Shown in pieces: positions 3,983-63,998 of a stretch of 64,000 nt of DNA. This stretch comes from a virus (Duplodnaviria > Heunggongvirae > Uroviricota > Caudoviricetes). The stretch is from the IMG/VR virus record IMGVR_UViG_3300028591_008384; one strand, given 5' to 3'. The first letter of the stretch is position 1; each line of letters begins with the position of its first letter. The notes beneath the pieces are model-generated. The model was not told the DNA's origin. It made no database searches and saw only the letters and a list, made by a program, of their open reading frames with translations. The position numbers and the translations under genes were made by a program.

Positions 3983-4017
3983 AATAAATATAGCATTGTT
4001 TCCTCCTGTTGGCAACC
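3983..4017 (-). promoter_or_regulatory. phage promoter motif (GGTTGCCAAC ... TGCTATATTT), leaderless start
   Basis: Reverse complement reads GGTTGCCAAC-N-CAATGCTATATTTATTACT then ATG; the -7 box fits the Bacteroidetes TAnnTTTG consensus. Confidence 0.5.
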
Positions 4018-4040
4018 GGGAACATTTTTGCTACATTTGT
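4008..4040 (+). promoter_or_regulatory. phage promoter motif for the plus-strand operon 4064-5816
   Basis: GTTGGCAACC-N7-TTTTTGCTACATTTG; SD aaggagt then ATG at 4064; divergent from the minus-strand promoter at 3983. Confidence 0.5.
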
Positions 4041-4063
4041 AACACCCAGTATAAGGAGTAACC

Positions 4064-4744
4064 ATGAGCAACATAGTAATACCCAAGGAACTGCCGGACT
4101 TAATCGACCGTTTCCACTTCCTGTGGAACAAGCTCCGGATCATCAAGAACCAGCGTATAGATTCGGACAGGCATGCCCTGCTTGAAAAGCTCAGGAACAT
4201 CAAGGCGCCAAGCGAGCTTGAAAAGCGCCTCATTGAGCAAATCGAGGGCGAGGAGAAGGCATGCCTGGATAACGGCGACAAACTCGAAAAGACATACCGG
4301 GAGGAAGAGGCCAGCCTCTATGAAAAGGTAAGGAAGGCATGCAAGGACATGCTCCTGGGTAAATACATCAAGCACATTACCGCATGGTACACCATATACA
4401 TGCGGGTGGACCAGGTGACAATGACCGGACGCACCGTGTCCATTTCCGGCAAAAGCATCAGCTTTTACAGGGAACACAACAATTTCCAATGGGCGTGCGT
4501 ACAGCATTATGACCTATTCGACATCAGCCAGGTCATATATGGGAATGCAACGCCTACACTGGAATCCCTGGAAACCGAACTGCAGCATTTTGAAATCATG
4601 AGCCGTGAAGAAGTAATCAACATTATGAAAGAGTACAAGGACAAGCTGGTAAAGGAATGCGACCACATCATCGACTATGCCGAGAAGATGGAAGACGACC
4701 CGATGCCGGAAGATGTACCGGTAGATACCAGCAAAATGGAGTAA
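4064..4744 (+). CDS. hypothetical protein
   Basis: ORF track 226 aa; SD taaggagt 8 nt upstream. Confidence 0.5.
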   Translation: MSNIVIPKELPDLIDRFHFLWNKLRIIKNQRIDSDRHALLEKLRNIKAPSELEKRLIEQIEGEEKACLDNGDKLEKTYREEEASLYEKVRKACKDMLLGKYIKHITAWYTIYMRVDQVTMTGRTVSISGKSISFYREHNNFQWACVQHYDLFDISQVIYGNATPTLESLETELQHFEIMSREEVINIMKEYKDKLVKECDHIIDYAEKMEDDPMPEDVPVDTSKME

Positions 4745-4755
4745 AGGAGAACACC

Positions 4756-5208
4756 ATGGGCAAGAGCAAGTATTGGAACTGGTATGGAAACGACCCGATG
4801 CCTGAGGTGGCAGAACGGTACTACGACCTTCTCGAAGAGGTGAACAACTCGTTTCCCGACGAGATGTGGGATGCCGACAAGGTACCGGGCGTGGAATCCG
4901 GACGGTACGAGGGATACGTGTCCGTCTACCATATATGCCATGACGGCCCGGAAGACATCCACCTCGACATTGACAAGGACGATAATGGCAAGTGCACCGT
5001 AGCACTATGCTCGTTGCGAGACAACGGCGCCAAGAATTTCTGGGACTTCCCGAAACGGGTGTTCATGAAGTACAGAGTGCCATACAAGGTGCTAATGGAT
5101 CGTGACTTCGCCTTCAACATCCTCGTACTCTTCGCCGGATCGAAGAAGGGATATCGCAAGGAGATGGCGAAATTCATCACCAAGTACGGCGGTAAACCGA
5201 CTAAATAG
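4756..5208 (+). CDS. hypothetical protein
   Basis: ORF track 4657..5208 trimmed to Met34 (MGKSKYW) with SD aaaggaga; it begins after the stop of the upstream gene. Confidence 0.45.
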   Translation: MGKSKYWNWYGNDPMPEVAERYYDLLEEVNNSFPDEMWDADKVPGVESGRYEGYVSVYHICHDGPEDIHLDIDKDDNGKCTVALCSLRDNGAKNFWDFPKRVFMKYRVPYKVLMDRDFAFNILVLFAGSKKGYRKEMAKFITKYGGKPTK

Positions 5209-5217
5209 GAGATTGTC

Positions 5218-5562
5218 ATGACCAATATCCCCCTTATTGTCCATCTAGGTGACGGGTGTGTCATCGTGGGAACCCTCGTATCGTTCCAGCAGAACCTTCC
5301 CGTGCCTACCTTCTTCGACAGCGCCATCCACCAGTTACCCGAGGCATCATGCAGTATTGGCGTGCTGACCGATACCATGGGGACCCTCGACTTCAACGCC
5401 AGACACATAGTCAAGATAGGGACCGACAAGGACCACATGGTCAATATCAAGGCGGCAATGGATGTCGTACTGTACCTTACATCACTGCTGAACCTGGATC
5501 GCAAGGTCGAAAGTTCCGTTGAACAACTCTTACAGCAAATCTGCCAGGATGCCTCCGCATGA
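5218..5562 (+). CDS. hypothetical protein
   Basis: ORF track 114 aa; SD aggag. Confidence 0.4.
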   Translation: MTNIPLIVHLGDGCVIVGTLVSFQQNLPVPTFFDSAIHQLPEASCSIGVLTDTMGTLDFNARHIVKIGTDKDHMVNIKAAMDVVLYLTSLLNLDRKVESSVEQLLQQICQDASA

Positions 5563-61133: not shown

Positions 61134-61348
61134 TAGTTGTACTCCTCTGCAAGATATACCCGCTGGTCAACAGGAATCCACTTTACGAAACCGGTTTCCA
61201 CCTTTTCAAGCCGGACGATAAGAATACCGCTCTTCTTGGATACTACCGGATTACCGGTCTTCTCGTAAGTCCACTTGGAACAAGGCGTAAGTTTGATGTA
61301 AGTGCCGATGCGGAGGTCACCTATGATTGCTGTCTTGTGCTCAGGCAT
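61133..61348 (-). CDS. hypothetical protein
   Basis: ORF track 61133..61360 (TTG) trimmed to the in-frame ATG with SD gaggaatagc. Confidence 0.35.
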   Translation of the reverse strand: MPEHKTAIIGDLRIGTYIKLTPCSKWTYEKTGNPVVSKKSGILIVRLEKVETGFVKWIPVDQRVYLAEEYN

Positions 61349-61356
61349 GCTATTCC

Positions 61357-61521
61357 TCAATAAAGCTGGAAGTTGGTGTCACCGCAGACCATGGTCGAAT
61401 CGGATGACTGGTAGCAGTCATTCGTAGGAGCAGAACCTGTATCAGTTGAACACCCGACCATGTAGAACATCGCGGCAATGATGCCCAGGGCGATCAGCCA
61501 CATCACGTATGCAAGTTTCAT
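61357..61521 (-). CDS. small lipoprotein (54 aa), hand-called
   Basis: Translation MKLAYVMWLIALGIIAAMFYMVGCSTD... (signal peptide plus lipobox MVGC); SD ggagga; its ATG overlaps the upstream stop (ATGA). Confidence 0.35.
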   Translation of the reverse strand: MKLAYVMWLIALGIIAAMFYMVGCSTDTGSAPTNDCYQSSDSTMVCGDTNFQLY

Positions 61522-61856
61522 ATTTCCTCCGGTGGTTCATACTCCACCTTGTGTAGTTCAACTTCCCCCACCTTGCGCATGTCCTCGATGTCGCTCAAAG
61601 TGACATCCACCTCCAACTGCTTGGTGGTATGCTGGTTCAGCTTGACGTACTTGATAGGAACCGCGGTGAATGTTATCACCGAGCCCGGTTCCAACTGTTC
61701 GCACCACGGGCCGACCCGTACCCAGACATGGTCACAAATCTGGATATGGCGCTCATCCATAATGGCATACAGCAGGGCAAATTTCCCATAGTAGTCCACC
61801 TTGATGAAGGTCGCCTGGTATCCATGGCGTTCCATTGTCTGTCCTAGGTTCCTCAT
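61518..61856 (-). CDS. hypothetical protein
   Basis: ORF track 112 aa. Confidence 0.35.
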   Translation of the reverse strand: MRNLGQTMERHGYQATFIKVDYYGKFALLYAIMDERHIQICDHVWVRVGPWCEQLEPGSVITFTAVPIKYVKLNQHTTKQLEVDVTLSDIEDMRKVGEVELHKVEYEPPEEI

Positions 61857-61860
61857 GCCA

Positions 61861-63975
61861 CTAGTCCAACAGTTTCAAGAATTCGTCCAATGTTTCGGTG
61901 GTGTACACCTCGATGTGCTGCCCGGCCTTCTGGAATTCCTCGATGGCCTTTACCTTCTTCGGGCCGGCATTGTCGCCGAGGAGAACGAGGTTGCACTTCT
62001 TGGTGATGGAAGAACAGATGGTTCCGCCATTGGACACCACCATGTCCTTGAACACATCACGGTCCAACTTGGAGAAGGTGCCGGTCATGATGCACACCCT
62101 GCCGGCGAGCTTCATGCTCTGGGCCTTCTTGACATTCTGGGCCACACCGAGTTCGACCATCTTCGCAATCATGTCCTTGTTCTGGTTGATGAACGTGACG
62201 AAGCGGGTCATGAGGATATCGCTTACACCGCCGGCCTTGGCGGTATCGACGAACTTGGAAAGGAATTGGGCGGAGGTTTCGGGGTCAGAGGACACAAATG
62301 CCCCGAAACCACCCGCCTCGGAAACACAGGATGCTACCACCGGGGAGGCCTGGTGGCCGAGTCCCTGGATGGAGAACCCTTCGATAAGCTGATGCAGGTA
62401 GTTATCCTTGGTCTTCGCAATAGCGGCAACAATCTTGGCAGCAGTCTTCTCGCGGATATTGCCGATGCCAACCAGGTCTTCCGCCGTAAGCGTGTAGAGC
62501 TGGTCAAAGGAACGGACCTTACCCGCCTCGAAAAGCAATTCGGCCATACTTTCACCGACACCCATGATGTTCATGCAATCGCGGGAGGCAAAGTTCTTCA
62601 ATTTCAACACGAACTGGGAAGTACAGTTATCATTGTCGCATACCCACGCGACAAGTTCGCGGCCTTCCGAGTTCACGGCACACTTCAGTTCGGCACCGCA
62701 GTACGGGCAGACCTTGGGACGCATGTAGCGTTCACCCGGAGTGGGCTTGTCATATGCCTCGACATGCGGAATAGGTTCCGGTTTGTGGCGGTCATACTGG
62801 TCGCGGATGACTTCATAGTCGTCCTTGCTGCGACCGGTCTCGGTACACTTGACGAGTTCCGGGATGATTTCGCCGGCCTTGCGGATTACCACATGGCAAC
62901 CCTTGAAGAGTCCGAGGTATTCAACGGTGTCCCAGTTGTGCAGGGAACATCTGGAAACGGTGGTCATGGCCAGATGAACCGGCTTGATGATGGCAACCGG
63001 GGTAATGGCGCCGGACATGCCTACGGATTCCTCGATGTCAAGGAGTTCGGTTTCCTTTTCCTCGGGCGGGAACTTGTAAGCACGATAGAAGTTCGGGGAC
63101 TTGGCAGTGTAGCCCAGTTCCGGCTGACGGTTCTTGTCGTTCACCTTGATGACCACGCCGTCAATCGGATAGGCCTGTTCAAAGCGGCGTTCACGCATGC
63201 CTTCGGCAACTGCGGTGAACTGCACAACATGTTGAACGACATGGTGTTCCGGTACTTCAAAGCCAAGGCTAATGAGGGTGTCAATATCTGCGGACTGCGT
63301 AGTGTTCGGACTACCCTTTACGATGAGATAGCCGATAAAGGAGAGGCCACGGCGTTCAACTTCATCAGGATCATGAAGTTTCAGGGTACCGGCGGCACCG
63401 TTACGGGGATTGGCAAACACCTTCTTGCCTTCCGCGGCGAACTGTTCGTTAATCGGCTCAAAGTCATCGTATTTCCATACGACCTCGCCACGGATTTCGA
63501 CATCGCCTTCCATGGCAATCTTGGAAGGAATGCCCTTTACTCGGAGGGCATTTTCAAACACGGAGTCGCCGATATTGTCCTTTCCGCGGGTGACAGCGTC
63601 CATCAGTTGCCCATCCTTGTAAATAAGGGCAAGACCGAGGCCGTCAATCTTGTATTCAAGTTCCAATTCGGGCACATTGTGCTCGTGCATCATGTTGGCG
63701 CACCACTCGTTAGCCTCGTCGATACCGTTGGAGTTGGAAATCGAAATCATTGGGATTTCATGTTTAACCTTCCGGAACCCTTCGGCACCGTCTTCGACAT
63801 GGCGGGTGGGAGAATTGTCAAGGATAAAGGCCGGATTTGCGGCCTCGAACTCCTTGAGCTGTACATATTTCTTGTCATAGACATCGTCCGTGACAATAGA
63901 ATTACCGGCGGAATAGGCCTTGGCCCATTCATTGAGAGTTCCCACTAGGGATACATATTCGTTGAAGTCTATCAT
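61861..63975 (-). CDS. ligA: NAD-dependent DNA ligase LigA
   Basis: ORF track 704 aa; adenylation motif KIDGLGL, Cys4 zinc finger [10 protein letters not shown]...C..C, HhH region, C-terminal BRCT ([13 protein letters not shown]...[11 protein letters not shown]); leaderless after the promoter box. Confidence 0.85.
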
Positions 63976-63998
63976 ACCCCGAATATAGCATATTTCCC
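63976..63998 (-). promoter_or_regulatory. phage promoter motif for ligA
   Basis: Reverse complement AAATATGCTATATTCGGGGT-ATG. Confidence 0.45.

Follow-up and report, generated by a model that had tools for sequence, protein, structure and literature searches.

Background

What is the short sequence that recurs in front of gene after gene in the viral DNA stretch IMGVR_UViG_3300028591_008384, by which polymerase is it read, and what does it say about the host of the virus? A sequence-only reading of the window (i.e. the whole stretch of 64,000 nucleotides analysed here) had described about 20 near-identical boxes before genes, each with an upstream GTTGCC box, and had taken their resemblance to Bacteroidota promoters as support for a Bacteroidota host. 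By following the motif through the window and through related phage contigs we arrive at a different balance, namely, that it would represent a strong promoter class of a T4-like rumen jumbo phage, read early or mid-infection by the RNA polymerase holoenzyme that contains the primary sigma factor of the host. We put the probability of this reading, which derives from the sequence features set out below, at roughly 65%. The motif cannot settle the host, and the inference of a Bacteroidota host should be dropped or held open.

Results and discussion

The motif is non-random, intergenic and oriented

The repeated motif is real and highly non-random. The exact 13-mer TTTGCTAYATTTG has only 4 copies in the window; with up to two mismatches 17 copies are found where 2.5 are expected, a number reached by none of 100 shuffled sequences. 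Likewise, 19 copies of the core TGCTAYATT stand against an expectation of 0.58, and 10 copies of the composite GTTGCC-N13-16-TGCTAYATT against an expectation of 0. A position-weight scan assigned scores of 16.5-21.4 to 19 oriented sites, i.e. 18 exact cores and one copy with a single mismatch, and at most 14.1 to everything else apart from two intermediates: the matches at 3360 (16.2) and 641 (15.5), both on the plus strand, which were excluded as sites because they lie antisense at a gene junction and inside a gene, respectively.

The gene map that we curated (103 open reading frames, or ORFs, and 37 tRNA genes, together 92.8% of the window) leaves 7.2% of the sequence non-coding, and 18 of the 19 sites fall wholly within that fraction. 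All 19 point toward the next feature (gene or tRNA) on their own strand. Several genes have a longer in-frame start that would engulf the motif. The ATG behind the motif was preferred because its spacing is exact, because terminator hairpins lie inside the would-be extensions, and because the protein lengths obtained from the leaderless starts discussed below, 448 and 704 aa, recur in the database gene calls for relatives.

The boxes listed by the sequence-only reading thus correspond to real sites at 19 of 20 positions, although the positions themselves were off by 2-33 nt. The remaining one, 57610, carries TTACCTACGATTTG, which directly adjoins the first tRNA, and is not a site. The distance of 15-18 nt given for the upstream box had to be corrected as well: in 13-14 of 18 sites it lies 13-14 nt before the 13-mer.

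The phage clade

The RlaP-like nucleotidyltransferase encoded in the window is 94-96% identical to proteins of 203- and 224-kb IMG/VR contigs, and graded relatives reside on contigs of 200-480 kb, with ligase identities from 92% down to 50%. The DNA polymerase of a relative is gp43-like, and the sample and metagenome-assembled genome (MAG) names of the relatives include 'ruminal_MAG', which points to the rumen; their study codes we take, without confirmation, to be those of ruminant metagenome projects. The rumen sample names, the gp43-like polymerase and the size of the relatives' contigs therefore identify the window as a part of a T4-like jumbo phage of 200-250 kb from an uncultured rumen clade. 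A megablast search with 20 kb of the window against GenBank phages gave no match.

Within this clade the motif is retained on evolutionary change. In the relatives with 94-96% identity the motif stands before the same genes but with different spacers, and in those with 58-69% ligase identity the copies of the box (TTTGCTATATTTG, 5 per 22 kb) are no less exact and perhaps more so. In the latter it precedes the ligase gene (again in leaderless position), the DNA polymerase gene, tRNA genes and the gene for a 255-aa sigmaA-like factor. Among 2.9 million viral contigs the strict composite was found in 30 stretches, mostly on a few 198-348 kb contigs of this clade, to which the motif thus appears to be specific. 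A scan of the viral contigs with TTTGCTAYATTTK-N4-ATG yielded at least 120 stretches, mostly coding DNA of unrelated phages; it was dropped as evidence because the count is about that expected by chance.

The motif also appears to cluster in a part of the genome. On the 203-kb relative the 12 strict matches all fall into the interval 55.7-136.6 kb, and the packaging (terminase) operon at locus L220 of a distant relative is without the motif. The clustering and the motif-free packaging operon therefore suggest a promoter class that is region-restricted, and hence probably time-restricted.

Promoter anatomy and start sites

An alignment of 52 non-redundant sites from the window and its relatives, later extended with further loci to 101, was numbered such that the A of TA is at -11. 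The conserved columns are G-36, T-35, T-34, G-33, C-32, C-31 and A-30; then, after a variable spacer, T-17, T-16, T-15, G-14, C-13, T-12, A-11, Y-10, A-9, T-8, T-7 and T-6, followed by G or T at -5, three loosely purine-rich positions, C-1 and A+1. Positions T-15, G-14, C-13, T-12, A-11, A-9 and T-8 are invariant (52/52 sites), and T-7 is present in 51. The upstream element reads TTGCCA, TTGCCG or TTGACR at -35 to -30, at a spacing of 17 bp (18 bp at two sites), and its TTG is found in 66 of the 101 pooled sites. An A occupies +1 in 39/52 and 77/101 sites and a C occupies -1 in 27/52 and 51/101. The signals at -35 and at -1/+1 are independent because those columns lay outside the search matrix. 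Orientation, intergenic position, fixed geometry and the C/A signature at the start site all bear out the earlier proposal of a promoter-type element, and the conservation indeed goes beyond any host consensus, as had been noted.

The element has the attributes of an extended -10 promoter of the sigma-70 type, i.e. a TTGACA-like -35 element, 16-18 bp to TAnnnT, and TG at -15/-14. Written as TTGCCA-N17-TGC-TAYATT and compared to TTGACA-N17-TGnTATAAT, it matches the -35 hexamer at 5 of 6 positions, keeps the TG, and matches the -10 hexamer at 4-5 of 6. A generic sigma-70 scan of the 30-50 kb region picked six of the nine motif sites as 9-of-12 matches, and these account for six of the seven scan matches that have an upstream TG.

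In sigma-70 promoters transcription starts 4-5 nt past an element that spans -12 to -5. The same geometry was described for the start sites of Flavobacterium johnsoniae relative to its -7 element (PMC6847099), and leaderless genes are marked by a TA-like signal about 12 nt 5' of the start codon (Zheng et al., PMC3160421). By either rule the fifth base after the 13-mer is the start. At 10 of the 19 window sites an ATG begins on this base (4 nt after the 13-mer), and at an eleventh the ATG is one base off (5 nt). In the pooled set an ATG that opens an ORF of at least 40 aa follows at 4 nt in 34 cases and at 5 nt in six, i.e. at 40 of the 101 sites, and at 3 or 6 nt in none; for random positions the four offsets (3-6 nt) together give 3.4%. 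The coincidence of ATG and predicted +1 therefore implies a leaderless mRNA at these sites, where the -10 element lies about 12 nt before the ATG and no Shine-Dalgarno (SD) sequence intervenes. The earlier statement that the ATG follows within a few nucleotides in most cases holds for these 11 window sites; the other eight have about 16-61 nt, or 254 nt before tRNA-Gly. The leaderless transcripts it predicted are thus supported, as is the mixed strategy in which leaderless genes stand beside SD-led genes in one phage: SD-like motifs occur at -18 to -5 before 56 of the 103 window genes (56 of the 92 leadered ones) against 10% of random positions, and the window start codons are preceded by a purine patch at -12 to -7 and by a drop in GC content of only 6.5%.

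Probable recognition by the host polymerase

Every conserved block coincides with a canonical contact of sigma, and a holoenzyme of the sigma-70 family is therefore the obvious reader. In the mechanism that we propose, region 4 of sigma would contact (G)TTGCCA at -36 to -30, region 3.0 the TG at -15/-14, and region 2 TAYATT at -12 to -7 together with T-6 and the G/T at -5. Transcription would begin 5 nt past the 13-mer at C(-1)A(+1). At 11 of the 19 window sites the +1 A would be the A of the ATG, and the mRNA would be translated without leader and without SD sequence; the downstream genes of each unit and the eight leadered first genes or RNAs would rely on SD-type sites, or be tRNAs.

The 255-aa sigmaA-like factor of the distant relatives raises the question whether the phage itself supplies the reader, i.e. 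whether motif and factor form a phage-specific sigma/promoter pair. The factor (L220, 2487-3251; L223, 3001-3762) has regions 2 and 4 and is closest to the short RpoD/SigA proteins of the Fibrobacteres-Chlorobi-Bacteroidetes (FCB) group, the best named homologue being a Fibrobacteria RpoD/SigA with 36% identity. Its occurrence in relatives with 58% ligase identity, the bipartite motif of sigma-70-type geometry that is more rigid than any host consensus, and the confinement of the motif to this clade would all suit such a pair. Nevertheless, the motif precedes the sigma gene itself, and this is conserved in two diverged genomes; it would therefore be read before any phage sigma exists, and another reader must act first. 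In addition, a homologue of the factor was sought in vain in the window, in a 263-kb sample of close relatives and among the best 80 viral matches, and a sigma-signature scan of the viral collection recovered one contig only, whereas the motif density in the close relatives without a detected sigma is the same. We consider a dedicated phage sigma improbable.

Alternatively, the box could be mainly a protein-binding site, i.e. the operator of a phage repressor or activator or the site of a MotA-like appropriator, laid over weak promoters. The invariance of TGCTAYATTT and GTTGCCA, which exceeds the usual constraint of polymerase contacts, could be so explained, as could the near-palindromic GTTGCCAAC, often embedded in inverted repeats. 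Yet the box is strictly gene-oriented, the 13-mer is not palindromic, the conserved blocks all sit at sigma contact positions (-35, -15/-14, -12 to -7 and +1), and the inverted repeats are followed by T runs in the manner of terminators. It would be very surprising if this explanation were the right one. The MotA box of T4, which TTTGCT resembles, sits at -30; the analogy was rejected because the box abuts the -10 element.

Several observations temper the reading by the host holoenzyme. Start site and timing are predictions from the sequence. All sites have T-8 in place of the A of TATAAT, and the rigidity of the core far exceeds what a host consensus requires, so that a dedicated factor could be involved. 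As the sites were picked with a core matrix, the invariance of the core is partly circular, and the non-coding status of several sites hinges on the choice of the ATG after the motif in our own gene map. Finally, the apparent absence of the phage sigma from this lineage was judged on parts of the relatives' genomes and on the best 80 viral matches.

The promoter sites of the window

In the following list 'first base' denotes the 5'-terminal position of the 13-mer, read on the strand of the site.

Site 1: 63975..64000, minus strand; TATGCTATATTCG at 63992-63980, predicted +1 at the A of ATG 63975 (NAD-dependent DNA ligase, leaderless); the -35 region would fall past the last base of the window.
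Site 2: 53820..53856, minus strand; first base 53837, -35 box GTTGCCAAC with ATTGCTATATTCT; leader of about 35 nt to an 81-aa ORF (53540-53785); just 3' of tRNA-Arg and preceded by a hairpin.
Site 3: 53456..53492, minus strand; first base 53473, GGTTGCCA with AATGCTATATTTG; ATG 53456 of a radical SAM protein, leaderless.
Hairpin at site 3: 53485..53518, minus strand; terminator-like, with a T run behind it (14 bp, -22.6 kcal/mol, z = -5.8); the -35 box of site 3 is at the same time the 3' arm of this hairpin.
Site 4: 49926..49962, minus strand; first base 49943, TTTGCTATATTTT; ATG 49926 of a 243-aa ORF, leaderless; GTTGCC is lacking, and the spacer is formed by a terminator hairpin.
Hairpin at site 4: 49947..49972, minus strand; like an intrinsic terminator, 11 bp; its T tract continues into the TTTGC of site 4.
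Site 5: 46344..46380, minus strand; first base 46361, GGTTGCC..GGCAACC hairpin with TTTGCTACATTTG; ATG 46344 of the CCA-adding tRNA nucleotidyltransferase, leaderless.
Site 6: 42766..42802, minus strand; first base 42783, GGCTGCCA with TTTGCTATATTTT; ATG 42766 of the RlaP-like nucleotidyltransferase, leaderless; the orthologous promoter is retained in relatives with a diverged spacer.
Site 7: 39947..39983, minus strand; first base 39964, GTTGCCAC with AATGCTACATTTT; leader of about 61 nt to an 896-aa ORF (start uncertain), for which no phage match was found.
Site 8: 37160..37196, minus strand; first base 37177, TTTGCTACATTTT; ATG 37160 of a 273-aa ORF, leaderless; GTTGCCA is overlapped by the TAG stop of the preceding gene.
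Site 9: 34155..34191, minus strand; first base 34172, GTTGCCGG..CCGGCA hairpin with TTTGCTATATTTG; ATG 34155 of a 181-aa ORF, leaderless.
Site 10: 32397..32433, minus strand; first base 32414, GGTTGCCA with GATGCTACATTTG; 26-nt A-rich leader to ATG 32371 of an SPFH/Band-7 protein.
Site 11: 31512..31548, minus strand; first base 31529, TTTGCTATATTCG, no -35 box; 254 nt without ORF, then tRNA-Gly(ccc) at 31258-31186 (minus).
Site 12: 24712..24748, minus strand; first base 24729, GGTTGACA (exact TTGACA) with AATGCTACATTTG; ATG 24712 of a 203-aa ORF, leaderless.
Site 13: 23007..23043, minus strand; first base 23024, TTTGCTATATTTG; 18-nt leader with GAGGAAAA to ATG 22989.
Site 14: 23017..23053, plus strand; first base 23036, TTTGCTACATTTC; 16-nt leader with AAAGGA to ATG 23069; forms a back-to-back divergent pair with site 13.
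Site 15: 16366..16402, plus strand; first base 16385, GTTGCCAT with TTTGCTACATTTT; ATG 16402 of a 103-aa ORF, leaderless, at the head of a plus-strand block (16.4-19.5 kb).
Site 16 (the weakest): 7183..7221, minus strand; first base 7200, core TGCTATGTT with one mismatch and GGTTGCCA one nt further upstream; leader of about 41 nt with AAGGAG to ATG 7142 (minus) of a 52-aa ORF.
Site 17: 6748..6786, minus strand; first base 6765, GGTTGCCA (spacer one longer) with TTTGCTATATTTT; ATG 6748 of a 51-aa ORF, leaderless.
Site 18: 4008..4044, plus strand; first base 4027, GTTGGCAAC with TTTGCTACATTTG; 20-nt leader with AAGGAG to ATG 4064.
Site 19: 3979..4017, minus strand; first base 3997, GGTTGCCAAC with AATGCTATATTTA; ATG 3979, 5 nt past the 13-mer, of a 213-aa ORF, leaderless; divergent partner of site 18, with a common near-palindromic -35 region.
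Orphan match: 3360..3372, plus strand; GTTGCTACATTTA with an exact core at 3362-3370, antisense at the junction of two minus-strand genes.

The orphan match has neither a -35 box nor a downstream ORF, and might have arisen by chance or serve as an antisense promoter. In the 254-nt stretch behind site 11 (31259-31512, minus strand) we found no credible ORF, Rfam match or unusual folding energy (z = -0.12); a long tRNA leader or an RNA of unknown type may be encoded there.

Fusion to terminator hairpins

Six of the 18 sites in the window have a strong hairpin with a T run directly 5' of the motif, and the three best terminator-like sites of the 30-50 kb region adjoin it. In some cases GTTGCC is itself the 5' arm of the adjoining hairpin. 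Termination of one transcription unit and initiation of the next thus appear merged into some 45 bp at about one site in three, such that the T tract of the hairpin would at the same time be the TTT of the motif.

Gene content of the window and its relatives

The minus strand holds about 90% of the window genes. Apart from the ligase, the CCA-adding enzyme and the RlaP-like protein, these include the NAD-salvage enzymes NAPRTase and an NMNAT-Nudix protein, three radical-SAM proteins and the 37 tRNA genes. All but one of the latter form a single 3.7-kb block (53884-57611, minus strand), the other being the tRNA at 31186-31258 (minus). Directly 5' of the array there is no copy of the motif, only a hairpin terminator and a degenerate TACCATTTA box. 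Between tRNA-Arg and tRNA-His lies a 109-aa ORF (53967-54296, minus strand) with a weak match to the EF-Ts N-terminal/UBA-like domain (E = 1e-5, below the Pfam cut-off). A patch of low GC content at about 7400-10200 (about 44% versus 52%) contains four ORFs of 211-247 aa without Pfam match, two per strand, and looks like a foreign insertion. In three relatives TnpB/Cas12f-like (PF07282) genes occur near the ligase region (L218, 13134-14870; L219, 1-975; L220, 13780-15051), and the L220 terminase contains a LAGLIDADG insertion.

What the motif says about the host

The most direct alternative for the identity of the motif is a Bacteroidota sigma-A(Bfr) promoter, with TTG as the -33 and TAnnTTTG as the -7 element, and thus a Bacteroidota host, for instance a rumen Prevotella. 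As in F. johnsoniae (PMC6847099), the columns T-12, A-11, T-8, T-7 and T-6 hardly vary and G is never or almost never seen at -10/-9, and the TTG lies 20 nt before TA, within the published range of 19-21 nt. Phages of Bacteroidota have similar promoters (TTTGTTTATATTTGCA and TAnnTTTG in PTm1 and B40-8). Among isolate phages, the RlaP-like protein has its best matches in Prevotella Lak phages and in Tenacibaculum phage PTm1, the latter with the same set of NAD-salvage, ligase and nucleotidyltransferase genes, and a Prevotella bin contains one of the nearest MAG-binned relatives.

The motif matches the Bacteroidota -7 consensus at five of six positions, and that consensus may not be the host's. 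Nevertheless, the motif reads equally well as the extended -10 promoter TTGCCA-N17-TGn-TAYATT. G-5, 'nearly invariant' in Bacteroidota (PMC6847099), is present at 28 of 52 and 45 of 101 sites (i.e. 45-54%, with T, A or C otherwise), position -36 is G and not T, and C-32, C-31 and A-30 are conserved as in a TTGACA hexamer, with TTGACG and TATATTGG in use among relatives.

The translation signals point, independently, in the same direction, i.e. away from Bacteroidia. Bacteroidetes lack SD sequences and Fibrobacteres retain them (PMC3155529), and the SD usage of the window is unlike that of Bacteroidota: the test that gave SD-like motifs before 56 of 92 leadered genes, the purine patch and the small GC drop gave 0/64 for the Tenacibaculum jumbo phage PTm1 and 5/46, i.e. 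background, with a GC drop of 14% for the Bacteroides phage B40-8. By a cruder ORF-based metric, SD usage is 5% in Bacteroidota chromosomal loci, 25% in Fibrobacter chromosomal flanks and 24% in the window. Moreover, leaderless starts are found in neither of the two control phages, whose TAnnTTTG promoters are leadered. There is thus a conflict: the SD usage points away from Bacteroidota, whereas both the nearest cultured relatives among phages and the -7-like half of the motif point toward them; on balance a Bacteroidota promoter and host seem doubtful, and the earlier claim that the motif supports such a host does not hold.

The nearest MAG-binned relatives are distributed over three Fibrobacter bins and the one Prevotella bin; such binning is weak evidence of host because one and the same phage contig was binned in both a Prevotella and a Fibrobacter MAG. 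Other routes to the host were less informative. A homologue search with the ligase returned metagenome proteins only, motif densities in Bacteroidota, Fibrobacter and Methylococcales chromosomal loci were confounded by GC content, a search for the leaderless signature in Fibrobacter flanks covered 77 kb, too small to decide, and a literature search on Fibrobacter promoters or jumbo phages yielded nothing usable. A direct comparison was provided by 14 Fibrobacter rrn upstream regions, recovered from metagenomes via the 16S primer sequence (flanks of L174-L215). Their promoter is very conserved and consists of an A/T-rich UP element and TTGACA/TTGCAA-N16-TATAATTGG, in which TATAATTGG is one substitution away from the phage TATATTTGG. 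Some 100 nt 5' of this rrn promoter there is another conserved block, GTTGATAGATTGTTGATAATGTG.

As a rough estimate, we assign 45% to a Fibrobacter-like host, 25% to Bacteroidota and 30% to others; a Fibrobacter-like host is at least as likely as one from the Bacteroidota. If the host did belong to the Bacteroidota, the phage would have to use two initiation routes that its host hardly uses, namely leaderless mRNAs from the promoter cassettes and SD-led internal genes. That scenario we regard as rather improbable; if true, it would amount to a phage-directed reprogramming of translation initiation, as the ribosomes of that phylum mask the anti-SD sequence.

Implications

Two features are worth noting: the systematic leaderlessness predicted for about 40% of the copies, and the fusion to terminator hairpins. 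The former translates into an expectation of leaderless mRNAs for about 40% of the promoter-proximal genes of a T4-like jumbo phage, and the latter provides a candidate for a portable strong-promoter-plus-terminator cassette. For rumen phages of 200-480 kb that belong to an uncultured clade, the analysis further supplies a predicted transcription map with about 100 start sites and the unit boundaries. There is a warning in it as well: resemblance of a promoter to the Bacteroidota -7 type is insufficient for host assignment, because here the translation signals disagree with that assignment.

Comparison with known systems

The promoter class would be of a known general kind, in which one strong, phage-optimised promoter of the host type is used in many copies, as in the early regions of T4. 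The early promoters of T4 are sigma-70-dependent, stand in many copies before genes for nucleotide metabolism, replication and tRNAs, are read by the unmodified host polymerase, and have a consensus that is longer and tighter than that of the host. The motif shares the many copies of one strong promoter, the tighter consensus and the kinds of genes (across the clade the ligase, the CCA-adding enzyme, tRNAs, the DNA polymerase and the sigma gene), and the clade shares with T4 its gp43-type DNA polymerase. It differs in its sequence, TTGCCA / TGC-TAYATTT, in the terminator hairpins within the spacer and in the 40% of promoters predicted to be leaderless, which is not known as a feature of T4.

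With the -33/-7 promoters of Bacteroidota (TTTG-N19-21-TAnnTTTG; PMC6847099) and those of PTm1 and B40-8, the motif has in common T-12, A-11, T-8, T-7 and T-6, a TTG about 20 nt upstream, and a start 4-5 nt past the element. It departs from them by having G-5 at about half of the sites and by the conservation of TGC at -15 to -13 and CCA at -32 to -30; in addition, Bacteroidota transcripts are mostly leadered and lack SD sequences, whereas this phage combines leaderless starts with SD sequences. From extended -10 promoters of the sigma-70 type it is set apart by the T for A at -8 in every site and by the conserved T-6. The Fibrobacter rrn promoter, in turn, lacks TG at -15/-14 and has the A/T-rich UP element, which the phage sites lack.

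Leaderless mRNAs are known from lambda cI transcribed from PRM, from Actinobacteria and Deinococcus, and from mycobacteriophages. The phage sites resemble the leaderless genes described before (PMC3160421) in that the first T of the -10 element is 12 nt before the A of the ATG, that there is no SD sequence, and that the start codon is always ATG. Unlike in those cases, leaderlessness would here occur in a T4-like jumbo phage of the rumen whose host may be from the FCB group; it would depend on a single fixed promoter sequence, and the operons concerned would contain SD-led genes as well.

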